A DNA stretch of 64,000 nucleotides from an uncultured Acidimicrobiia bacterium (lineage in GTDB: Bacteria > Actinomycetota > Acidimicrobiia > Spongiisociales > UBA5794): the NCBI GenBank assembly GCA_963834375.1, contig CAWIBM010000002.1, forward strand, positions 972,919-1,036,918. The letters run 5' to 3'. A model generated the notes under the pieces. That model was not told where the DNA came from, ran no database searches, and worked only from the letters and a program-made list of their open reading frames with translations. Positions 5,276-59,888 of the stretch are shown piece by piece. Within the stretch, counting starts at the first letter, position 1. Every line of letters starts with the position of its first letter. Made by a program: the position numbers and the translations under genes.

Positions 5276-6209
5276 GCATGCGCCGCTGGCCGGGACCGAC
5301 GAGGCGATCGAGGCGTTACGCGCCCAGCACTACAACGCCACCATCACCCGCTTCGACCGCACCCACTCGGACCTCTGGCTGCTCCGGGTCAGGCCGGACC
5401 GGGGCGACACTCGCACCTGGCCGGGCAGTACGCCTCGCTGGGGCTGGGCTACTGGGAGCCGAGGGCGGACGTGGCCCGCGAGCCCAACCTCGACTCGGTC
5501 TGGGACAAGCTGATCCGGCGCTCGTACTCGATCTCCAGCCCCGATCCTCGATCATTCCGGATACCTCGTCCGGACCGGACGACGAGCTGGAGCTCTACAT
5601 CGTGCTGGTGCCGCCCACCGGCGACCGCATCCCCGGGCTGACCCCCCGGTCTGGCGTTGAAGGCCGAAGGCGACCGGATCTACCTCGGGCAGAAGATGGC
5701 GGGGCGCTACACGCTCGCCCACGTCACCGACCCGATGACCCAGGTCGTCTTCCTCGTCGACGGGGACCGGGGAGGCGCCCCACAACGACGATGATCGCCG
5801 AGTTGCTCGGGAAGGGTCACACCGGCGCCATCGGTGTCGGTGGTCTCGGTGCGCTACCGGCAGGACCTCGGGTACGACGCCATCCACCGCCAGCTCGCCG
5901 AGCGCTTCGCCAACTACCACTACCTGCCGGTGGTCACCCGGGACGAGAACGCCCCCAAGCGCTACATCCAGGATCTCATCGAGGACGGCACCATCGGCGA
6001 GGTCCTGCCCGCCGGGCTCGACCCGGCGGTCACCCAGGTGTACGCCTGCGGCAACCCGGCGATGATCGGGCTCCCCGAGGTCGGTGGGGGACGACGCCGA
6101 GCTGCGCTTCCCGGAGCCACGCGGCGTGGCCGAGATCCTCACCGGGCTGGGGTTCACCGTCGACCGGAGAGGCGTGCACGGCAACGTCCACTTCGAGGAG
6201 TACTGGTAG
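5276..6209 (+). CDS. Ferredoxin/flavodoxin-NADP+ reductase (Fpr-type FNR), frameshifted
   Basis: 'ITRFDRTHSDLWLLRV', the FAD motif 'RSYSISS', 'VVFLVDGTGEAP', 'VYACGNPAMI' and the C-terminus 'HFEEYW' (compare E. coli Fpr '...AEHYW'). A 1-nt correction after ATG 5276 gives 'MPLAGTDEAIEALRAQ'. Confidence 0.65.
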
Positions 6210-7408: not shown

Positions 7409-7530
7409 CAACTTTGAGCACTTTGCATCGAATAGCGAGGTAAACCGCTCAAAGTTGTGCGGCGTAGAGCGAGGTGTTTCAACCTTGAGCACTTTGCATC
7501 GAATAGCGATGTCAACTGCTCAAAGTTGTG
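7409..7530. repeat. Tandem pair of nested-palindrome elements (CAACTTTGAGC...GCTCAAAGTTG arms around CATCG-AATAG-CGATG). Same family as 53316-53436
   Basis: Two ~50-bp units with a 72-bp period. Outer arms are 11-bp inverted repeats, the inner arms 5-bp. Seen directly. Confidence 0.85.
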
Positions 7531-11191: not shown

Positions 11192-11302
11192 TCAACCGAA
11201 GAAGCCCCACGCCACAAGGGCCAGCGTGAGGACGACGAAACCTGCCACCAGGACGACGTCGATGGTCGAGACGCGTTGCTTGCGGAAGGGGTTGAGGCCC
11301 AT
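11192..11302 (-). CDS. Small membrane protein (36 aa)
   Basis: 'MGLNPFRKQRVSTIDVVLVAGFVVLTLALVAWGFFG'. Its start codon directly abuts repeat element A. Confidence 0.45.
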   Translation of the reverse strand: MGLNPFRKQRVSTIDVVLVAGFVVLTLALVAWGFFG

Positions 11303-11396
11303 GGGCACAGAGGCTACGCCGTCAGGCGGAGACTCGGCGATGGGGGCTGGGGGTCCCCCATCGCACCCGTGATGAGGCGTCAGCCGAAGAGCCATG
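11303..11396 (-). ncRNA. ~90-nt conserved structured 5'-leader element, copy A (inverted copy at 45339-45427)
   Basis: 'catggctcttcggctgacgcctcatc...gcgatgggggacccccagcccccatcgccgagtctccgcctgacggcgtagcctctgt' read on the minus strand, ending at the ATG of the small membrane protein. It contains a 10-bp stem gcgatggggg/cccccatcgc. ncRNA is the closest schema type; regulatory RNA versus DNA operator is unresolved. Confidence 0.55.
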
Positions 11397-11444: not shown

Positions 11445-12225
11445 ATGGCGCTGCTCACGGTCTCCGACGACGGCCCGGTTCGCACCCTGACGTTGGCCAA
11501 TCCCGGCCGGAAGAACGCCATCCCATCGGACGGCTGGGACGAGTTGACGGCGGCGTTCCGGGAGTTCGCCGACTCGGGACAGCGGGTGCTGGTGGTCACC
11601 GGCGCCGACGGTGACTTCTGCTCCGGTGCCGACCTGGCGAACGCCGGCTTCGGTCCCGGCGCCGGGGTGTCCGCCAACGTGGGTTGGATGCGGCGGCCCG
11701 GCGCCGCCGCCACCGCGCTCCACCGCCTGGCGGCGCCGACCATCGCCGCCGTCGACGGCATCGCCGCCGGCGCCGGCATGAATCTCGCCCTCGGGTGCGA
11801 CATCGTGATCGCCACCGAGCGTGCCCGGTTCACCGAGATCTTCGTCAGACGCGGGCTCACCCTCGACTTCGGGGGCACCTGGCTGCTCCCCCACATCGTG
11901 GGCCGGGCCCGAGCCCTCGATCTGGCGCTCACCGGCCGGATCGTCGAGCGCGGCGGAGGCTCTCGAGATGGGTCTCGTCGCCCGCGTGGTACCCGTCGAC
12001 GACCTGGCGGCAACAGTGGCGGAGGTCGCCGAGGCGCTGGCCGCCGGAGCGCCGCTGGCGCAGCGCTTCATCAAGACCGGGATCGACCGCGCCGCCGCCA
12101 TGACGTTCGAGCAGGGAATCGCCTTCGAGACCGAGGCCCAGGGTGTGCTGCTGTCGTCGGCCGACGCCGCCGAGGCGCTCGACGCCTTCCTCACGAAGCG
12201 GGCCGCCCAATTCGAGGGTCGCTGA
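11445..12225 (+). CDS. Enoyl-CoA hydratase/isomerase (crotonase family), one apparent frameshift
   Basis: 'VVTGADGDFCSGADL', 'IAAVDGIAAGAGMNLALGCDIVIATERARF', then 'AEALEMGLVARVVPVDDL...' in a second frame. An alternative ATG lies at 11394. Confidence 0.75.
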
Positions 12226-25262: not shown

Positions 25263-25383
25263 TCGCCGACCCCGGCAACCCCCTCCTCGTCTGCCGTGCA
25301 GGCCTTCGGCCGTGTCGCAGCCACTCCTCCCCCGTGGGGGGAGGAGAAACAAGACATCGGAGGGCCGTACCATTGACCCTGTC

Positions 25384-29102: not shown

Positions 29103-30500
29103 ATGGACTACAACCTGCTCGATGCCCTCGAGCTCCTCGAGCGAGAGAAGGGCGTGCCCGCCGACGTGATCCTCGACGCCCTGGCCAACGCCCTGGTGTC
29201 CGCCTACAAGCGCACCCCGGGCGCCGCCGAAGAAGCGCGGGTGACCATCGACGCCGACACCACCGAGATCATCGTCTACGGCCAGGATCTCGACGAGGAC
29301 GGCAACGTGGTGCGGGAGTGGGAGGACACCCCGGACGACTTCGGCCGCATCGCCGCCCAGACCGCCAAGCAGGTGATCCTGCAGCGGCTGCGCGACGCCA
29401 AGCGCGAGCAGGTCTTCGAGCTGTACGAGGGCCGCGAGGGAGACCTGGTGACCGGCATCGTCCAGCAGTCCGACCACCGGTACGCCATCCTCGACCTGGG
29501 CAACGCGGAGGCGATCATGCCCGCCTCCGAGCGGATCCCCTACGAGAAGCTGGAGCGCGGCAACCGGGTGAAGGCATACATCCTCGAGGTCCGCGGCGAA
29601 GGCAAGGGTCCGCAGATCGTGATCAGTCGAAGTCACCCGGAGTTCATCAGGTCGCTGTTCGAGCTCGAGGTGCCGGAGCTCGTCGACGGCGACGTCGAGA
29701 TCAAGGCGATCGCCCGTGAGGCGGGCCATCGCACCAAGATCGCCGTGCTGTCCAACGATCCCAACGTCGATCCCGTAGGGGCCTGTGTCGGCGCCCGTGG
29801 CTCCAGGGTCCGCCAGGTGGTCAACGAGCTGAGGGGCGAGAAGGTCGACATCGTCGAGTGGCGCCCCGAGGCGGCTTCCTTCCTGGCCGAGGCGCTGTCC
29901 CCGGCTCGGGTCAAGGAGGTGCGTCTCGACGACGAGAACCGGGTCGCCACCGTGATCGTTCCCGACCACCAGCTGTCGCTGGCCATCGGCAAGGAGGGAC
30001 AGAACGCCCGTCTCGCCGCCCGGCTGACCGGTTACAAGGTCGACATCCGCTCCGAGAGCCAGGACCTGGGCCTCGATGTGGAAGAGGCCGCTGTCGCGCC
30101 GGCGACAGCCGCCACCGACGAGGGGGCGATGTCACCGCAGGCGGCGAAGAGGGCGACGACAGCGCCGTCGCGGATGACGCGGTGGTCGCGGATGACAGCG
30201 CCGTCGCGGATGACGCGGTGGTCGCGGATGACAGTGCCGTCGCCGATGACAGTGCCGTCGCGGATGACGTGGTGGTCGCGGATGACAGCGCCGTCGCCGA
30301 TGACAGTGGTCGGTCGCGGATGACAGTGCCGTCGCCGATGACAGTGCCGTCGCGGATGACGTGGTCGGATGCGCCGTCGCGGATGACGCGGTGGTCGCGG
30401 ATGAAGCGGTGGTCGCCGATGAAGCGGTGGTCGCCGATGAGACCGGCGACGACGACGCCGCAAACGACGAGGTCGACGAGGATCAGCCCGCCGGCGCCTG
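29103..30500 (+). CDS. nusA: Transcription termination/antitermination factor NusA with C-terminal acidic tandem-repeat tail (frameshift near 30115)
   Basis: The N-terminal, S1 and KH domains are intact ('[20 protein letters not shown]...'). After a G5 run at ~30118 the sensible frame becomes '(A/S)(V/A)VADD' x~12 and ends '...[28 protein letters not shown]'. Confidence 0.85.
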
Positions 30501-30552: not shown

Positions 30553-32652
30553 TTGGCGAAGCTACGGGTGTACGAGCTGGCACGAGAGCTTGGACACGAC
30601 TCCAAGGATGTGCTGGCGCGTGTCCACGAGCTCGGCATAGAGGCCAAGACCGCCTCGTCCGGTCTCGACGACGATGCCGTCGCCCTCGTCCGCCTGGCGT
30701 ACGAGGACGCCTCGGCAGGCGCCGTCGCCGGCGAGCCGGCGGCCGGCGACGAAGTGCCGATCGCCACCAGAGACGAGGACACCGAGACCGACACCGAGCC
30801 GGAGCCCGAGTCCGAGCCCGAGCCGGGACCCGAGCCCGAATCGAGACCCGAGCCGGAGCCCGAGTCCGAGGCAGAGGAGGACACCCTCATCTCCGTCAAG
30901 GAGGGCGTCACCGCCGCCGAGTTCGCCCGACAGATCGGGGAACGAACCGGTGAGGTCGTGAAGGCCCTGATGATGATGGGCGAGATGGTCCCGGGGGGTG
31001 GTGCCATCCCGGTGACGGCGCTCGAGCCCCTGGGGGCCCGCTTCGGGTACCAGGTGCTCGTCGACGAGGCGGAGCCTGTCGAGGCGGAGCCCGTCCGCGG
31101 CCCGCACCGCGTCGAGTTCGAGGACGACCCTGCCAGCCTGCGGCCGAGGCCGCCGGTGGTCACCGTGATGGGCCACGTCGACCACGGCAAGACCAGGCTG
31201 CTCGACACCATCCGCACCACCAACGTGGTCGCCGGGGAGGCAGGGGGCATCACCCAGCACATCGGCGCCTACCAGGTGAAGGCCGGCGACGGCCAGACGA
31301 TCACCTTCATCGACACGCCCGGGCACGAGGCGTTCACCGCGCTGCGCGCCCGCGGGGCCAACGTCACCGACATCGTCATCCTCGTCGTCGCCGCCGACGA
31401 CGGGGTCAAGCCGCAGACCGTCGAGGCCATCGACCACGCCAAGGCGGCAGGGGTTCCCATCATCGTGGCCATCAACAAGATCGACCTGCCCGCCGCCGAC
31501 CCGAACTCGGTCAGGGCCGAGCTCACCCAGCACGGCATCGTCGTCGAGGACCTCGGCGGCGACGTCGTGTCGGCCGAGGTGTCGGCGCTCGACGGGCTCG
31601 GGGTCGACGAGCTGCTCGAGATGGTGGCGCTGGTCGCCGAGGTCGGCGAGTTGCAGGCCAACCCTTCGGCACCCGCCGTCGGCACCGTCATCGAGAGCCA
31701 GCTCGAGGTCGGCAGAGGCCCTGTCGCCACCGTCATCGTCCAGCGGGGAACCCTGAAGCCGGGTGACGCCCTGGTCGCCGGGTCGGTCGCCGGGCGGGTG
31801 CGGGCGCTCTTCGACGAGAACGGCGTGAGGCTCATCAACGCCGGCCCGAGCACCCCGGCGGTCGTCATGGGGTGGGACGAGGTCCCCGCCGCCGGCGACA
31901 TGTTCGAGGTGGTGAAGAACGAGCGCTCCGCCCGCAAGCTGGCCGAGGCCAAGGTGGGTGAGCAACGCAGCCATGACCTGATCGTCCCCACGGCCACCGA
32001 GCGGCTGGGACAGCTCCTCGAGCAGCTGCGCACCCGCGACGACGCCGAGCTGCGCATCGTGGTGAAGGCCGACGCCCACGGATCGCTGGAGGCGATCCGT
32101 GACGCCGTGGCGAAGATCAAGCGAGAAGACGCCGCCGTCCACATCATCCACGCCGGGGTCGGGGGCATCACCGAGAACGACGTCAGCCTCGCCGAGGCGT
32201 CGGAGGCGATCGTCTACGGGTTCAACACCCGCCCGGATGCCGGCGCCCGCACCGCGGCCAAGGATCGCGCCATCGACATCCGCACCTTCCTGATCATCTA
32301 CGAGCTGTTGGAGGACATCGAGTCGCTCCTGGTCGGCGAACTGGCCCCGGAGGAGGTCGAGACCTTCCTCGGCTCGGCCGAAGTCCGGGCGACGTTCCGC
32401 TCGCCGCGGTTCGGCACCATCGCCGGGTCGTACGTGACCGACGGTGACATCAACCGCAACGCAAGGGCCCGGCTGGTCCGCGACGGAGTGGTGGTGTACG
32501 ACGGGCGGATCGCCTCGCTCCGTCGCTTCAAGGACGACGTGGCGAGCGTGAGCTCCGGCTTCGAGTGCGGCATCGGTCTGGAGAACTTCCGTGACATCAA
32601 GGAAGGCGACTTCATCGAGTCGTACGAGATCAGGCAAGTCGCCCGTACCTGA
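30553..32652 (+). CDS. infB: Translation initiation factor IF-2
   Basis: Intact 699 aa: '[18 protein letters not shown]'. The N-terminus has EPEPES low-complexity. Confidence 0.93.
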
Positions 32653-42676: not shown

Positions 42677-42854
42677 AAGCCGGCTCGTTCGAACGCATGA
42701 AGGGCCCTCCCGGAGACGGGAGGGCCCTTCAGTGTCTTCTCTCTCCTCCCCCTCTGGGGAGGAGGGGCTGCAGCTCGGGCCGAAGGCCTTCACGGCAGAC
42801 GAGGAGGGGGTCGGGGGCGCCAGGCGAGTTGTGAGGCCCGGTGCGTGTGTTGTG

Positions 42855-43915: not shown

Positions 43916-45329
43916 GCCCGCCCAGGCGATCGGCTCCGACCACCGGGTGGTGGCGGTCAACCGGGAGGCTGCCCTCGGCGGGGTGACCGTTGGGATGCGC
44001 CGCCGTCAGGCCGAGGCCCTGTGCCCGGCGGTCCGTACCCTGGTGAGCGATCCCACCGACGAGGCGATCAGGTTCGAGCCGGTGGTGCGGGCGATCGAGG
44101 GCCTGATCCCCAGGGTCGAGGTGGTGCAACCCGGGCTGCTGCTGGCGCCGGTCACCGGGGCGGTCCGCTACTACGGCGACGAGTGGTCGATGGTGGCCAG
44201 GGTGGTGGAAGCCATCGAGGCGGTGGCCGGGCCTGGCCACAGGATCGGGCTCGCCGCCGGCCCCTTCGCCGCCCGTTGCGCCGCCGAGATGGCGGTGGGG
44301 GAGCCGCTGGTGGTCGAGGACGACCACGACTTCCTCCGCTCGCTGGACGTGGCATCGCTGGGTCGGGAGGAACTGGCCGCCACCTTCCGCTGGCTGGGGA
44401 TCACCACCTTGGGTCAGCTCGCCGACCTGCCTCGCCAGGCGATGGTGTCGCGCTTCGGCGCCGAGGGGCTGGATGCGCACCGATTGGCCCGGGGTGAGGA
44501 TCGACCTCCGCGACCCAGACAGGTACCGGTCGACCTGGGGGTCGAGGAGGTGTTCGACCCTCCGATCGACAACCTCGACCGGGCGGCCTTCGCCGGCAGG
44601 GCACTGGCCCACCGGCTGCTGGCCGGGGCCGGCCGCCAGGGGTCGACCCCGTTCCGCGTCGACGTCGAGGCGGAGTCTGCCGCCGGTGTCATCCGATCGT
44701 GTGTCTGGCGCAGCCCGGACCCGTTCGATGAGGCGTCGTTGAGCGACCGGGTGCGCTGGCAGCTGGCCGCCTGGCTCGACGAGACCAGAAGGGGTGACGG
44801 GCCGGGTATCGAGGGTGGAGTGGTGCGACTGCGGCTGACCCCGGCAGACCTCTCCGACGAAGGGCGCCAGCTCGCCCTCGACGAGGACGCCGGGCGCGAC
44901 GCCCACTCCCGGCGCACCCTGGTGCAGACCCAGGCGCTGGTGGGCCAGGACCAGGTGCGGGTTGCCCGTCCCCAGGGCGGGCGGGACCCGGGCGACCGGG
45001 TGTCGTGGGCACGCTGGGACGACCCGCCCGCCTCCCCGGCCCGTGACCCCGCAGATCCGTGGCCAGGGGCGATCCCGGCACCGTCGCCCGCCCTGGTCCC
45101 CGACACCGCTACCCGTTTGGTGGTCGAGTGGGACGGGGGGATGCCGGAACGGGTTCGGCTGGGCAGTCGTTGGGAACCGGTGCTGTCATGGGCTGGCCCA
45201 TGGCGCCGGACCGGCCGCTGGTGGAGCGGCGAGCCCCCTGCCGACCGCTACCAGATCGTCACCTCGGCCGGAGCCTTCCTCTGCGAGGTGAGGGACGGGA
45301 CCACCTACCTCACCGGCATCTACGACTGA
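43848..45329 (+). CDS. imuB: ImuB (catalytically inactive Y-family polymerase homologue)
   Basis: 'MERTLCVWYPDWALRRP...' is the characteristic ImuB N-terminus. 493 aa. Confidence 0.75.
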   Translation: MERTLCVWYPDWALRRPDTPPGEPAQAIGSDHRVVAVNREAALGGVTVGMRRRQAEALCPAVRTLVSDPTDEAIRFEPVVRAIEGLIPRVEVVQPGLLLAPVTGAVRYYGDEWSMVARVVEAIEAVAGPGHRIGLAAGPFAARCAAEMAVGEPLVVEDDHDFLRSLDVASLGREELAATFRWLGITTLGQLADLPRQAMVSRFGAEGLDAHRLARGEDRPPRPRQVPVDLGVEEVFDPPIDNLDRAAFAGRALAHRLLAGAGRQGSTPFRVDVEAESAAGVIRSCVWRSPDPFDEASLSDRVRWQLAAWLDETRRGDGPGIEGGVVRLRLTPADLSDEGRQLALDEDAGRDAHSRRTLVQTQALVGQDQVRVARPQGGRDPGDRVSWARWDDPPASPARDPADPWPGAIPAPSPALVPDTATRLVVEWDGGMPERVRLGSRWEPVLSWAGPWRRTGRWWSGEPPADRYQIVTSAGAFLCEVRDGTTYLTGIYD

Positions 45330-45338
45330 TCTCACTTT

Positions 45339-45427
45339 CATGGCTCTTCGGCTGACGCCTCATCGCAGTGCAATGGGGGACCCCCAACCCCCATCGCCGA
45401 GTCTCCGCCTGACGGCGTAGCCTCTGT
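45339..45427 (+). ncRNA. ~90-nt conserved structured 5'-leader element, copy B (~93% identical to the reverse complement of 11303-11396)
   Basis: Direct comparison gives 5 substitutions and 1 indel over ~90 nt. It ends ~24 nt before the RBS (GAGGAG) and GTG of the STAND-cyclase gene. ncRNA is the closest schema type; regulatory RNA versus DNA operator is unresolved. Confidence 0.55.
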
Positions 45428-45450: not shown

Positions 45451-48318
45451 GTGGCCGGCAGTCGGGGCGTAGAAGACAGGAAACCTCGTAACCTGCCCGC
45501 CGTGCTCGTCGAGAGGGACCGGCAACTCGACCAGATGGCCGCGGTTGCCGGTCAGGCCGGAGACGGCCGCGGCGGCGTCGTGCTGGTGAGTGGCGAAGCC
45601 GGGATCGGCAAGACGACCGTGGTCAACGAGTTCCTGGCTCGCCACCGCGGAGCGGTCGTCCTGTGGGGGTCCTGCGAGGACCTGGCCACCCCACGCACGT
45701 TCGGTCCGTTGCACGACATGGCGCGGCATGATCCAGGCCTTCTCGCCGCCTTGCGCGACGGGAGCCACCTCGACGTCTACGAGGCGTTGGTCGCCGCCCT
45801 GTCTCCTCCCACCGGCCTGGCGGTGGCGGTGATCGAGGACGCCCACTGGGCCGACCAGGCAACCATCGATGCCATCCGCTACGTCGGGCGCCGCGCCGCC
45901 CACGGCCACGGCGTGCTGGTGGTCACCGCACGCACCGAGGCGTTGGTGGGAGATCATCCGCTCCGCCTTGCGTTCGGTGGGATCCCGCCGGGCTCGGTGG
46001 TGAGGATCGAGCTGCCGGCGCTGACCCGAGAAGGCGTGGTGGCGCTGGCGGGCGACCACCCGGTCGACGAGGTGCTCGCCATCACCGGCGGCAATCCCTT
46101 CTTCGTGACCGAACTACTCGACAGCGGCCTCGACCTGCCGCGCAGCGTGGTCGACTCGACCCTGGCTCGGGCGGCGGACCTGTCGCCGTCGACCCGGGAC
46201 GTGCTCTCCGTGGTCGCCGTGGTACCTGGCGAGACGGAGCGGACGATGGTCGACGCCCTCGAGCTCGATCTCCCGGCTGCCCTGGCCGAGGCAGAGCCTG
46301 CGGGGCTCATCCTCACCACGACCACGGCGATCCGGTTTCGCCATGAGCTGGCGCGCCGGGCCTACGAGGCGTCGCTGGCCTCCGACCGTCGCCGTGACGA
46401 GAACCGGCGGGTGTTCACCCACCTCGAGGGCACCGACGCCGATCCCGCCCGGCTCGTCCACCACGCCGAGCAGGCCGGGATGCTCGACGGGGTCGCCCGC
46501 TGGGCGCCGGTGGCGGGACGTGAGGCGGCGGCCGTCGGCGCCCATAGGCAAGCGGTTGAGCACCTGCAACGCGCCGGCATCGTCCTCGATCGCTACCCGC
46601 TGGAGGAGCAGGCGTCCCTGCTCGAGCTCCTGACGTGGGAGCTATACGTCCTGGGTCGGTTCGGCGCCGCCCGCCATCCGTCGGAGCGGGCGGTCGCCAT
46701 CAGGGAGCAGCTCGGGGAACCCGCCGCCAGAGGCAACGCCCTCCGGCTCCTGTCGAGGGTCCACTGGGTACGCGGCGAGCGTCACGAGGCCGACCGGCGT
46801 GCCGAGGAGGCGATCGCCGTTCTCGAGCCGCTGGGTGAGAGCCGGGATCTCGCCATGGCCTACTCGACCCGTTCCCAGCTGGCGATGCTCAGCGCCGAGG
46901 ACGAGGAGGCGATCCGCTGGGGCACCGTCGCCGTCGACATGGGACGGCGCGTTGGTGACCCACAGGCGCTCACCCACGCCCTCAACAACGTGGGGACGGC
47001 GCAGGCGCACCAAACCGATTCCGCGGAGGGGATCGAGCTCATCGTGCAGGCTCGCCGCATGGCGATCGACAACGGGCTGGACGAGGACGCCGTCCGGGCG
47101 TGGACCAACGAGGTGTGGAGCCTGCTCCGGTCCCACCGCAATCAGGAGACCGGCCCGCTTCTGGAAGAGGCGATCGGATTCGCCCACGACCGGCAGCAGG
47201 ACGGGTTCGAGGCCTACCTGACCGCCACCCGCTCGATGCACCGGCTCGCCGTCGGTGACTGGGACGGAGCCGAGTCCGACGTTCTCTGGGTCCTCCAGCA
47301 GCCCGCGGTGTCCGGGACCAGCGACTTTCCGGCGGCGAGCACCTGGGGCACCCTGCTCGCCCGACGTGGGGAGTTCGCCGAGGCCCGGGACGTCCTCGAC
47401 GCCGGCTGGGAACGGGCCGTCGAGACCCTCGAGCTGCAGCGGACCCTTCCGATCGCCACCGGGATCGCCGAGCTGGCGTGGCTCGAGGGGCGTCCCCTGG
47501 ATGGCATGTATGCGTTCAGCCAGATCTCCGACGACCTCGCCGCTCGAGGCACCTCATGGGAGCGGGCGGAGGTGGCGATGCTCCAGCGGCGGGCCGGGCT
47601 CGAGACCCCGGCTCCCCTCGACGTGCCGGAGCCGTACCGGCACTGGTTCGACGGCGACCACCGGGCGGCGGCGGAGGCGTGGCGCAGCATCGGCGAGCCG
47701 TATGCCGCCGCCTCCGCCCTGGCCGACTCGGGCGGGATCCAGGACCTCGAAGAGGCGGTCGAGGTCATGGAACGACTGGGTGCGGTGGCGGCGGCCGCTC
47801 GCGCCGCCGCCGATCTGGAGCAGGCGAAGGCGCGACGTCGCCGGCTCGCCACGGTGCTGTTCACCGACGTTGTCGGGTCGACCGAGATGGCGGCTCGGAT
47901 GGGAGACGACTCATGGCGCCGGTTGCTCGACGAGCACGACGCCACCACCGCCCGGGTGGTGGCACGCCACGGGGGCCGGGTGGTGAGCGGGACCGGCGAC
48001 GGTGCGATGGCGAGCTTCGAGTCCCCGTCATCGGCCATCGACGCCGCCGTGGAGCTGGTCCGGGAGCTATCCGGCGCCGGGGTCACCATCCGCGCCGGTC
48101 TCCACACCGGGGAGGTCGTTCCCCGCGGCGACGACATCGGTGGGATGGCGGTGCACATCGCCGCTCGCGTCGGGGCGGAGGCGGGTGCGGGCCAGGTGCT
48201 GGTGTCCAGCACCACCCGCGACCTGGTGGTGGGCGGCGCTCGGACCCTGACCGACGTGGGCACTCGCCGGCTCAAGGGCGTGGCCGACGAGTGGCTCCTC
48301 TACGAGGTGTCCGGCTGA
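45451..48318 (+). CDS. STAND-type P-loop ATPase / TPR-like helical array / C-terminal class III nucleotidyl cyclase (CHD) fusion
   Basis: Intact 955 aa. Walker A 'GEAGIGKTT', Walker B 'LAVAVIEDAHWAD', a long helical-repeat middle, and C-terminal 'LATVLFTDVVGSTE...GTGDGAMASF...IAARV...LKG'. Confidence 0.8.
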   Translation: MAGSRGVEDRKPRNLPAVLVERDRQLDQMAAVAGQAGDGRGGVVLVSGEAGIGKTTVVNEFLARHRGAVVLWGSCEDLATPRTFGPLHDMARHDPGLLAALRDGSHLDVYEALVAALSPPTGLAVAVIEDAHWADQATIDAIRYVGRRAAHGHGVLVVTARTEALVGDHPLRLAFGGIPPGSVVRIELPALTREGVVALAGDHPVDEVLAITGGNPFFVTELLDSGLDLPRSVVDSTLARAADLSPSTRDVLSVVAVVPGETERTMVDALELDLPAALAEAEPAGLILTTTTAIRFRHELARRAYEASLASDRRRDENRRVFTHLEGTDADPARLVHHAEQAGMLDGVARWAPVAGREAAAVGAHRQAVEHLQRAGIVLDRYPLEEQASLLELLTWELYVLGRFGAARHPSERAVAIREQLGEPAARGNALRLLSRVHWVRGERHEADRRAEEAIAVLEPLGESRDLAMAYSTRSQLAMLSAEDEEAIRWGTVAVDMGRRVGDPQALTHALNNVGTAQAHQTDSAEGIELIVQARRMAIDNGLDEDAVRAWTNEVWSLLRSHRNQETGPLLEEAIGFAHDRQQDGFEAYLTATRSMHRLAVGDWDGAESDVLWVLQQPAVSGTSDFPAASTWGTLLARRGEFAEARDVLDAGWERAVETLELQRTLPIATGIAELAWLEGRPLDGMYAFSQISDDLAARGTSWERAEVAMLQRRAGLETPAPLDVPEPYRHWFDGDHRAAAEAWRSIGEPYAAASALADSGGIQDLEEAVEVMERLGAVAAAARAAADLEQAKARRRRLATVLFTDVVGSTEMAARMGDDSWRRLLDEHDATTARVVARHGGRVVSGTGDGAMASFESPSSAIDAAVELVRELSGAGVTIRAGLHTGEVVPRGDDIGGMAVHIAARVGAEAGAGQVLVSSTTRDLVVGGARTLTDVGTRRLKGVADEWLLYEVSG

Positions 48319-53315: not shown

Positions 53316-53436
53316 CAACTTTGAGCGAGTTACATCGCTATTCGATGCAGCGCGTCAAGGTTTGCGTGATGCGGTCGGTTGATCTCCAACTTTGAGCGCC
53401 TTTCATCGCTATTCGCTGCAAAGTGCTCAAGGTTGG
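53316..53436. repeat. Tandem pair of nested-palindrome elements, reverse orientation. Same family as 7409-7530
   Basis: 'ccaactttgagcgcctttcatcgctattcgctgcaaagtgctcaaggttgg' is the reverse complement of a 7409-7530 unit with few changes. Two units with a 70-bp period, in a convergent intergenic region. Confidence 0.85.
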
Positions 53437-53473
53437 ATCATGCCCTTGCCGGAGTGTCCACGAGCGCGGTCCG

Positions 53474-59057: not shown

Positions 59058-59767
59058 CCGGACTCCTCGCCCGCCGGCTCGTGGATCACCAGGAGCGATC
59101 CCTGGCGTACCGTCACCGTCGCCCGCTCCGCGGTGAGCTCGTTGCTCACGCCGCGGGTCGAGCCGGCCTCGAGGACGGCACCGTCGAGCGGCCACCGCAG
59201 CCCGGCCGTGGTCACATCACTGGCAGGCCCGGGGGCGGCGAGCAGCGAGACGAGGTCGCCCGGCGCTCCTTCGACGACGACCTCCCGGCCCGGCCGTGCC
59301 ACCTGCACCTCGGTCGTGCCCACCATCCATCGGATCTCGATGCCGGCATGGCGGCCGGCGGCGACCAGGGCGGCGTTGCCGAGCAGGTGGCTGAGCCGCC
59401 CGCCACCGCCGCCGAGGACGGCGCACTCGGTGAAACCGCCCTCGACCACCCGCTGGAGGGCGAGGTCGAGGTCGGTGCGGTCCTTGTCGACCGGGTGCCG
59501 CTCCACGGCGACACCGTCGGCCTCGGCTGCGGCGAGCCCTTCGGCCGACACCGAGTCGAGGTCGCCGATCAGGATGTCGACGTCGATGCCGGCCGACCGG
59601 GCCGCGTCGAACCCGGAATCGACGGCGACCACCGTGCCCGCGGCGGCGAGCCGCCGCAGCACCGCCCGGTCGACCCCGTCACCGCCGGCGATGAGCACGG
59701 CGAGGCGGCGACGAGCGATCGGAGCCGGGGCCGACGAAGCGGCCGGCAGGGGATTGGTCGTTTCCAC
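59051..59767 (-). CDS. Thiamine pyrophosphokinase
   Basis: Intact 238 aa: 'LIGDLDSV', 'DKDRTDLDLAL', 'GGGGGRLSHLLGN'. First gene behind the TPP riboswitch. Confidence 0.75.
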   Translation of the reverse strand: METTNPLPAASSAPAPIARRRLAVLIAGGDGVDRAVLRRLAAAGTVVAVDSGFDAARSAGIDVDILIGDLDSVSAEGLAAAEADGVAVERHPVDKDRTDLDLALQRVVEGGFTECAVLGGGGGRLSHLLGNAALVAAGRHAGIEIRWMVGTTEVQVARPGREVVVEGAPGDLVSLLAAPGPASDVTTAGLRWPLDGAVLEAGSTRGVSNELTAERATVTVRQGSLLVIHEPAGEESGS

Positions 59768-59771
59768 TCGC

Positions 59772-59888
59772 TCCCTCCGCTGGTGTGATCCAGATCAGGT
59801 TCCACGGGTCGGTGACGTTCGCCTGCGGCGCCGGTCACCCTCTCAGCTCGGCGTTCCCGAGCTCCCCGGGGGTGGGTTGTCCCATTCA
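59772..59888 (-). ncRNA. TPP (THI-box) riboswitch
   Basis: Minus-strand RNA 'GGGGAGCUCGGGAACGCCGAGCUGAGAGGGUGACC...GUGGAACCUGAUCUGGAUCACACCAGCGGAGGGA' carries the CUGAGA and ACCUGAUCUGGAU...ACCAGCG...GGGA hallmarks. Its 3' GGAGGGA overlaps the RBS of the TPK GTG. Confidence 0.85.

Follow-up and report, generated by a model that had tools for sequence, protein, structure and literature searches.

Two copies of an element of about 90 nucleotides (nt), here called copy A and copy B, lie in inverted orientation 34 kb apart in a 64,000-nt stretch of DNA from an uncultured soil bacterium of the class Acidimicrobiia (GenBank assembly GCA_963834375.1, contig CAWIBM010000002.1, positions 972,919 to 1,036,918; hereafter the window). 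A sequence-only reading of the window had taken them for a cis-acting leader in front of two unrelated genes, one for a 36-aa membrane protein and the other for a STAND ATPase-cyclase. Our analysis confirms the underlying observation with corrections, lends no support to the riboswitch or leader interpretation, and leaves a shared promoter module as an option that survives in part. We consider it probable that both copies are single units of a dispersed repeat that is small, non-autonomous and able to amplify in tandem, resembles MIRUs, the interspersed repetitive units known from mycobacteria, and has recently spread within a species group of Acidimicrobiia. Units insert without target duplication and in one orientation, between a stop codon or a -10 hexamer and the next start codon, and they then expand and contract as 91-92-nt tandem arrays.

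Comparison of orthologous loci in close relatives, cited here by their L numbers, provides evidence for insertion. For site B, loci were obtained through homologues of ImuB and an identical 68-aa dodecin protein, and among those compared only the window and L168 (99.4% identical) carry the element. In L172, whose flanks are 97-99% identical, the site is empty and TGAtctcac is followed directly by TGTTTCTCC. In the window the same flanks enclose TTTCATGG...GGCGTAGCCTC, making the filled site exactly 89 nt longer, with no target duplication. The site is also empty in L161/L164, L163, L165-L167 and L169-L171, or at least eight relatives besides L172. At site A the occupancy varies. The identical 36-aa protein is encoded on 10 public contigs with differing upstream repeat content: L004 has no unit (its intergenic region is 54 nt, window positions 11305-11396 are missing, and the flanks are 92-97% identical), L002 (98.6% identical to the window) has one, L001 (about 97% identical) has two in tandem, and in L003 and L005-L007 only the 3′ module of the element is present, joined to G+C-rich repeats of other kinds. 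In L003 (positions 1-320) and L007 (1-166), the region upstream of the 36-aa gene consists of ~77-nt G+C-rich direct repeats (ttccccccgccccggctg...ggggcggggaaa) fused to a 3′ module whose hairpin is altered in a compensatory manner (CGCCC-AAAG-GGGCG), and these repeats are thus mosaic. Elsewhere in the family, orthologous loci of two metagenome-assembled genomes (MAGs) carry one versus two units (L018/L039, L019/L020 and L032/L034), and four units are found in L027. On the strength of these comparisons, copies A and B are best read as independent recent insertions and not as a regulatory device common to both genes. The proposal that recombination between the inverted copies might flip the intervening 34 kb is not borne out, since the presence or absence of copy B does not disturb collinearity between assemblies: in Contig_68253 the two copies are separated by 34.0 kb and oriented to each other as they are in the window, and Contig_43595, which lacks copy B, is collinear with it.

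Copy A occupies the minus strand from 11396 to about 11305 and copy B the plus strand from 45336 to 45424, and their parts are listed in Table 1. A second delimitation places them at 11307-11396 and 45339-45427. The copies are ~94% identical, and no inverted repeat in the window is longer than the one they form, whose 60-nt arms are 97% complementary. A nucleotide hidden Markov model (HMM) built from 32 unique units scores them at 85 bits (copy A, 11396-11310) and 90 bits (copy B), and finds no other match in the 64 kb. The sequence-only reading correctly held that both copies exist, that each contains a G5/C5 hairpin, and that the element is non-random. Its count of 5 substitutions and 1 indel becomes 4 and 1, and its statement that the differences fall beside the stem rather than in it proves mistaken: one lies inside the stem (gcGatggggg in copy A, gcAatggggg in copy B), where it creates in copy B an A.C mismatch on the very strand that had been proposed as sense, and another lies in the loop. 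The long-range pairing once suggested for ctgacgcc and ggcgtag likewise gives way to two separate local hairpins, GGC-TGAC-GCC and CGCC-TGAC-GGCG, in which these segments sit.

A location directly 5′ of start codons, also claimed for both copies, describes copy A well. The ATG of the 36-aa open reading frame (ORF), at 11302, lies 4-7 nt past its end, and the TAGCCT of copy A, a -10-like hexamer, is 8 nt upstream of that ATG. Copy A also contains a 1-nt insertion (catcACGGGtgc), shared with L002, which brings the reading frame of the element ATG (11395) into line with that of the 36-aa ORF; the resulting fusion is a 67-codon ORF that runs from 11395 to 11192 and skips the TAG. The claim fails for copy B, whose distance to GTG 45451, the start of the longest ORF, is 23 nt and to the conserved start, GTG 45502, ~77 nt; its position is better given as 9-10 nt past the stop codon of imuB. 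GTG 45502 is likely the true, leaderless start of the STAND ATPase-cyclase gene (938 aa), and GTG 45451 (955 aa) probably is not: gene callers place the start at the corresponding position in six relatives, TAACCT or TATCCT is found 6-7 nt upstream of it in all relatives (L161, L163 and L165-L172), and the geometry is that of the native TANNNT-N6-start sites described below, which is why we read it as leaderless.

A search for further copies in relatives, one of the checks that the sequence-only reading had called for, recovered a multicopy family. When one genome per species was scanned across 185,579 species, the pattern ATCGCCGAGTCNCCGCC-N3-7-GGCGTAG matched three uncultured Acidimicrobiia MAGs and one chance sequence; MFD05567.bin.2.61 accounted for about 24 matches and the 3.25-Mb chromosome OY970227.1 for about 13, several of them paired in tandem at a distance of 91-92 nt. 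The HMM gave 54 matches in the fetched loci. Each unit has a near-invariant 5′ module of 25-27 nt that starts with ATG, a hypervariable triplet, a 10-bp G/C-run hairpin, and a short hairpin ending in GGCGTAGCCTC. A metagenome scan with the 5′ module ATGGCTCTTCGNCTGNCGNCTCATC as query extended the picture, as at least 120 stretches from many samples carry it. In these loci the 25-nt module is joined to very different downstream sequence, and unit length takes values of 74, 83, 86, 91-92 and 113 nt, while the architecture of variable triplet, G/C-run hairpin, second hairpin and end at a start codon is constant. In sister subfamilies the stop codon of the small ORF inside the unit overlaps the next start, with an offset of -1 (ATGA/GTGA) in 21 cases and +2 (TGATG) in 8. 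Subfamily B resides within operons in the sense orientation; subfamily D does so in the opposite orientation, with the complement of the module supplying GAAGAGCCATGA. Searches by blastn of plasmids (three queries) and phages returned chance-level matches only, a scan of viral contigs with the 5′ module returned none, and Rfam, applied to the whole window at the gathering threshold and to copy A and a subfamily-B array at E<=10, gave nothing credible for the element, the E-value searches yielding only matches far below threshold. The sequence-only reading had recognized no known riboswitch class. The sole Rfam family in the window is the TPP riboswitch RF00059, at 59754-59878 on the minus strand (59.4 bits against a gathering threshold of 54.3). 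A literature search by literal sequence, MIRU-like repeats and Acidimicrobiia repeats found no description of the element.

The case for the central hairpin lies in the family and not in either copy taken singly. Single-sequence folding of either strand is no better than that of shuffled sequences (z -1.1 to -1.6); covariation, another check that had been suggested, upholds the hairpin. Unique units contain 36 distinct central stems, of which 25 are in-register 10-bp stems, and in these 25 six of the ten positions covary: 13 have C-G and 12 have T-A at position 2, for instance, and five pair types are seen at position 5. The observed pairing was not reached in any of 2000 column shuffles. The small 5′ hairpin covaries as well, with 59 unique units having G..C as its middle pair, 88 having C..G and 1 a mismatch, and the 3′ hairpin keeps its stem while its loop varies. 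These two small hairpins stand in direct orientation near the ends of the unit and are identical (CGCCTGACGGC) in many units. Pairing in the central stem also differs between strands. With wobble allowed, the complementary strand is canonically paired at 100% and the strand that carries the element ATG at 94.4%; 19 distinct stems have A.C on the ATG strand and 1 has G.T, and the stem substitution in copy B is of the A.C type. The A.C mismatches, which read as G.U on the complement, occur at no fewer than five stem positions, whatever the orientation to genes (window 45370-45397; L045, L060 and L065). Deamination bias on the coding or leading strand was considered as a cause and discarded, as it predicts the opposite pattern. 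The asymmetry suggests to us that the complementary strand matters to the element itself in a single-stranded form, whether RNA or DNA.

Understanding how such units are accommodated requires a definition of the genes around them, and in DNA of 70% G+C the longest-ORF rule fails; coding strand and frame were therefore called from the phase of G+C at third codon positions. By this measure the downstream gene lies on the strand of the element at 28 of 30 callable sites, so the consistent orientation first noticed for the two copies holds for the family as a whole. Of 35 non-redundant sites, about 24 have their earliest possible start codon (ATG or GTG) 1-8 nt past ...GGCGTAGCCTC. Two types of upstream neighbor are seen. 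In the first, exemplified by copy A, the upstream gene is divergent and the unit occupies a true promoter region; in the second, exemplified by copy B, a co-directional gene ends with its stop codon 9-15 nt before the element ATG. Overall, only about one site in two has a co-directional upstream gene. The ATG strand is the leading strand in 9 of 11 chromosomal copies, as gene co-orientation predicts, and we therefore set aside a replication-strand bias. The downstream genes are unrelated by Pfam, and include those for metallo-beta-lactamase-fold, class-V aminotransferase, MaoC, ABC transporter, glyoxalase, phosphoglucomutase, FdhD, DUF4032 and AAA_16 plus cyclase (STAND-cyclase) proteins, as well as small membrane proteins. 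In L025 and L031 the 3′ flank of the element holds what we take to be prfB (release factor 2), with a short first ORF, MNDFDPRARLKELQARLDDARRFL and a stop, of the kind typical of programmed frameshifting.

Native start sites in this lineage suggest what the 3′ end of the unit might do. Among 214 native genes that lack the element, TANNNT is found 6 nt before the first start in 13 and at any other offset in 2 at most, and it occupies that position at 3 of 629 control internal starts. The sharpness of this peak argues that leaderless promoters exist in the lineage. Among native hexamers at 6 nt before the start, TAGCCT occurs most often, and by sequence the 3′ end of the unit is a mimic of this putative leaderless -10 element. 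At its other end the unit opens with cATGG, from which, in most subfamily-A copies, a mini-ORF of 26 codons extends to the TAG of GGCGTAGCCTC; in this subfamily the TAG is 9-11 nt upstream of the host start. A distance of 10-11 bp between the stop of a leader ORF and the following start is over-represented in Actinobacteria and has been ascribed to reinitiation (PMC4833913). The TAGCCT hexamer, the reinitiation spacing, or both could keep the host gene expressed. Several other interpretations of these features were tried and rejected. The mini-ORF is unlikely to encode a functional peptide, as compensatory changes in the stem alter its sequence, which is not conserved; Pfam assigned no family to the mini-ORF peptides. 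CATGG does not represent a target duplication, given that the flanks differ and that GTG serves as the start of many downstream genes. Nor is there support for recombination exactly at TAGCCTC between element and native promoters, the spacing usually being 1-3 nt above the native 6.

We propose that a unit is tolerated at gene starts because it rebuilds what it displaces. The ATG of the element would replace the displaced start; the mini-ORF would end at a TAG 9-11 nt before the host start, at a spacing suited to termination-reinitiation; and the same TAG would open TAGCCT, a copy of the commonest leaderless -10 hexamer of the host, 6-9 nt before the start. With its start-site signals rebuilt in this way, the downstream gene would stay expressed. 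The element itself would be selfish or neutral, and its hairpin would be conserved for the biology of the element, where it is likely to play a part when the complementary strand exists as a single-stranded intermediate. Several observations weigh against this proposal. About a third of units, copy B included, are not beside a start codon. Some units have a broken mini-ORF, with TGA at codon 10 (L023 and L035) or a frameshift (six-C units and copy A), and between TAGCCT and the start there are 6-9 nt, a wider range than the optimum of 6 nt in native genes. The cyclase gene has a -10-like hexamer of its own downstream of copy B, and copy B need not affect that gene at all. Furthermore, we infer the promoter and reinitiation roles from geometry alone. 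No mobilizing enzyme or autonomous partner was found, in a survey confined to the fetched loci in which transposases and REP-associated tyrosine transposases (RAYTs) were not searched for systematically. Finally, CTGT occurs within 9 nt of the 5′ end of the unit in 9 of 24 flanks, at variable distance, against a background of 1.1%; such enrichment might come from a preferred target or from a segment of the element that is poorly conserved, which leaves the unit boundaries partly unsettled.

Among small repeats described in other bacteria, MIRUs offer the closest parallel. They appear to be mobile and to insert at start codons, so that the MIRU ORF becomes coupled to the host gene (2025 review PMC12548453, citing Supply 1997), and they are defined by the lack of dyad symmetry and by ORFs that overlap their neighbors (PMC4473831). 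Like MIRUs, the units described here are 40-100-bp sequences dispersed in intergenic regions, often in tandem and with strain-variable copy number; they share the orientation of the adjacent gene, lie at start codons, contain a small ORF and have no known transposase. In sister subfamilies even the overlap of ORF stop and next start takes the -4 (ATGA/GTGA) arrangement of MIRUs. In contrast to MIRUs, the family has a strongly covarying 10-bp hairpin together with two small hairpins, and many copies occupy true promoter regions beside divergent genes and are not restricted to operons. In the subfamily found in the window, moreover, the TAG is 9-11 nt upstream of the start, does not overlap it, and doubles as part of the -10-like TAGCCT. 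The hosts are Acidimicrobiia and not Mycobacterium, and the comparison is one of described behavior, not of sequence. Because the window subfamily has dyad symmetry and lacks the ORF overlap, we do not file it as a MIRU.

Other known classes are less similar. Repetitive extragenic palindromic (REP) sequences, REPINs and GTAG-tagged palindromic repeats (PMC3733652, PMC3116915) are also short, G+C-rich, multicopy and non-autonomous hairpin repeats, and subfamily A has GTAG beside a stem; the units here, however, are composites of greater length (about 90 nt) whose 5′ module is fixed and non-palindromic, they occur at the starts and not the 3′ ends of genes, their GTAG is oriented differently, and no RAYT partner is known for them. 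In the window and its relatives, the ends of the unit, CATGGCTCTTCGG... and ...GGCGTAGCCTC, are not inverted copies of one another, so terminal inverted repeats are lacking. Together with the absence of target site duplication in the comparison of L172 (empty) with the window (filled), this rules out a transposable element of the miniature inverted-repeat kind (MITE). Correia elements of Neisseria and the enterobacterial repetitive intergenic consensus (ERIC) sequences are small intergenic repeats that can supply adjacent genes with promoter-like hexamers and are co-transcribed with them; both are MITEs with terminal inverted repeats, and Correia elements produce a TA duplication. The element described here has neither feature. 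It is thus not a MITE, not a typical REP, and not a member of any Rfam family.

A different account of the same geometry is that the unit is a portable promoter or operator, a mobile regulatory cassette that combines TAGCCT with a repressor site, the imperfect palindrome GAGtCTcCGCC-TGAC-GGCGtAGcCTC, and places unrelated genes under common control to adaptive effect. The element fits the operational definition of putative mobile promoters, a class of 50-100-nt sequences, at least 80% identical, that stand directly before non-homologous genes of a single genome (Matus-Garcia et al. 2012, PMC3488235). That class is operational and mechanism-free, whereas insertion polymorphism, arrays, structure and a superfamily are documented here and promoter activity is putative. 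The identity of TAGCCT with the commonest native leaderless hexamer speaks for a cassette of this kind, as does the retention of the 3′ module alone, right before starts, in truncated or mosaic copies (L003, L005-L007, L014, L016 and L037), and the TAGCCT end 6-9 nt before many starts is the part of the shared-module idea that survives. Strain-variable copy number and common tandem arrays are not expected of a tuned regulon, however; sister subfamilies dispense with TAGCCT and use stop/start overlaps instead, subfamily D has the opposite orientation within operons, and copy B stands upstream of both the hexamer and the start that the cyclase gene already has. No regulator has been identified, and a scan for E. 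coli-type promoters and terminators detected nothing, though such a scan is uninformative for this phylum. We therefore view an adaptive regulatory cassette as unlikely.

The mode of spread invites comparison with single-strand (HUH/Y1) transposition, in which the unit would be an IS200/IS605-type palindrome-associated or REP/REPIN-like derivative mobilized through its two subterminal hairpins by a TnpA or RAYT encoded elsewhere. Such an origin would accommodate the lack of target duplication at site B and of terminal inverted repeats, the two similar small hairpins in direct orientation near the ends, and the strand-asymmetric wobble, which points to a single-stranded form. The CTGT-enriched 5′ flank resembles the element's own 3′ end, CTCTGT, and GTAG follows the 3′ hairpin as in GTAG-tagged REPs (PMC3733652). 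Other observations weigh against it, however. The arrangement that resembles a CTGT target is on the strand opposite to the wobble-tolerant one, GTAG stands 3′ of the stem and is confined to subfamily A, the small hairpins have stems of only 3-4 bp, the distance from CTGT to the start of the unit varies (1-3 nt), REPs are usually found at the 3′ ends of genes, and no transposase or RAYT was seen in the fetched loci, where neither was sought systematically. On balance we think a derivative of this type distinctly unlikely. Least of all do we favor a structured cis-acting RNA leader, riboswitch-like or an sRNA (small RNA) target, that would control both downstream genes: its merits are the consistent orientation, a truly conserved and covarying hairpin, and an alternative pairing, CATCGC-nnn-GCGATG, that competes with GCGATGGGGG/CCCCCATCGC, but it is made very improbable, and appears largely refuted, by the absence of both copies from the orthologous sites of close relatives (at least nine for site B; L004 for site A) and a copy number of 0, 1 or 2, and it is further disfavored by near-identical units before unrelated genes, the frequency of tandem arrays, the lack of an Rfam match, a hairpin that is fully canonical on the antisense strand only, and the weak folding scores.

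It is possible, and we offer this tentatively, that the units in the window belong to an undescribed superfamily of non-autonomous mobile DNA that is widespread in soil metagenomes. Its members would insert precisely at start/stop junctions of translation, with no target duplication and with a "start-site repair kit" (ATG, mini-ORF and stop/-10 mimic), and pass through a single-stranded intermediate of the strand complementary to the ATG strand, and their invariant 25-nt module and covarying hairpin would be recognized by an enzyme not yet linked to known small repeats.

Table 1. Coordinates of copies A and B, their parts and associated features in the window.
Feature	Coordinates	Strand	Remarks
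Copy A, one subfamily A unit	11305..11396	-	Between echA (ATG 11445, +) and 36-aa ORF (ATG 11302, -)
Copy A 5′ module, ATGGCTCTTCGGCTGACGCCTCATC	11371..11395	-	Holds element ATG (11395-11393) and small hairpin GGC-TGAC-GCC
Copy A central hairpin, GCGATGGGGG-ACCCCCAG-CCCCCATCGC	11337..11364	-	Read in sequence; family covariation
Copy A 3′ module, hairpin CGCC-TGAC-GGCG then TAGCCT(C)	11310..11328	-	
36-aa membrane-protein ORF downstream of copy A	11192..11302	-	
Copy B, one unit, clean 89-nt insertion	45336..45424	+	6-9 nt past imuB stop (TGA 45327-45329)
Copy B 5′ module with element ATG (45340-45342)	45340..45364	+	
Copy B central hairpin, GCAATGGGGG-ACCCCCAA-CCCCCATCGC	45370..45397	+	A.C mismatch here; G.U wobble on complement
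Copy B 3′ module, CGCC-TGAC-GGCG and TAGCCTC	45406..45424	+	
Outside element: -10-like TAACCT (45489-45494), 7-nt spacer, GTG 45502	45489..45504	+	Conserved in L161, L163, L165-L170 and L172

The genes beside the two copies show some changes of their own. The enoyl-CoA hydratase gene echA (11445-12225, plus strand) has a 1-nt insertion at 11947 relative to L002, a locus 98.6% identical, and its frame is shifted after about codon 167, which reflects either a pseudogene or an assembly error. In L162 (positions 5483-5792), where ImuB is 83% identical, the STAND-cyclase gene is deleted and a 64-aa ORF that matches the cyclase C-terminus (...RRLKGLEDDWRLYEVAG) is left. The window also contains other repeats. 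A second one, of about 50 nt, lower in G+C and palindromic (CAACTTTGAGC...GCTCAAAGTTG), is present at 7409-7459, 7480-7530, 53316-53349 and 53387-53440, its first pair falling between an acyl-CoA dehydrogenase gene and trmD. A 34-nt inverted pair (25278-25311 and 42778-42811; 97% complementary) contains a GGCC-GAA-GGCC hairpin and is perhaps a shared element of terminator type; pnp and the dodecin gene flank its second copy. Two runs of tandem repeats, at 30091-30481 (period 18 nt) and 30782-30876 (period 12 nt), are presumably within a coding region.

The finding is a corrective, as the identical "leaders" before unrelated genes here represent mobile DNA and not shared regulation. It also bears on annotation, since units create spurious N-terminal extensions and small ORFs, of which the 67-codon fusion and the 955-aa versus 938-aa calls for the cyclase are examples, and units can serve as strain-typing markers of the variable-number tandem-repeat kind. 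More broadly, the family provides a natural system outside Mycobacterium for an old question about MIRUs, namely how small repeats can enter start codons without killing the gene. Near-identical strains with empty and filled sites, and subfamilies whose junctions range from a -10 mimic and a 10-nt reinitiation spacing to ATGA and TGATG overlaps, supply the comparative material, and the strand-specific structural signature constrains the mechanism by which these repeats would be mobilized.

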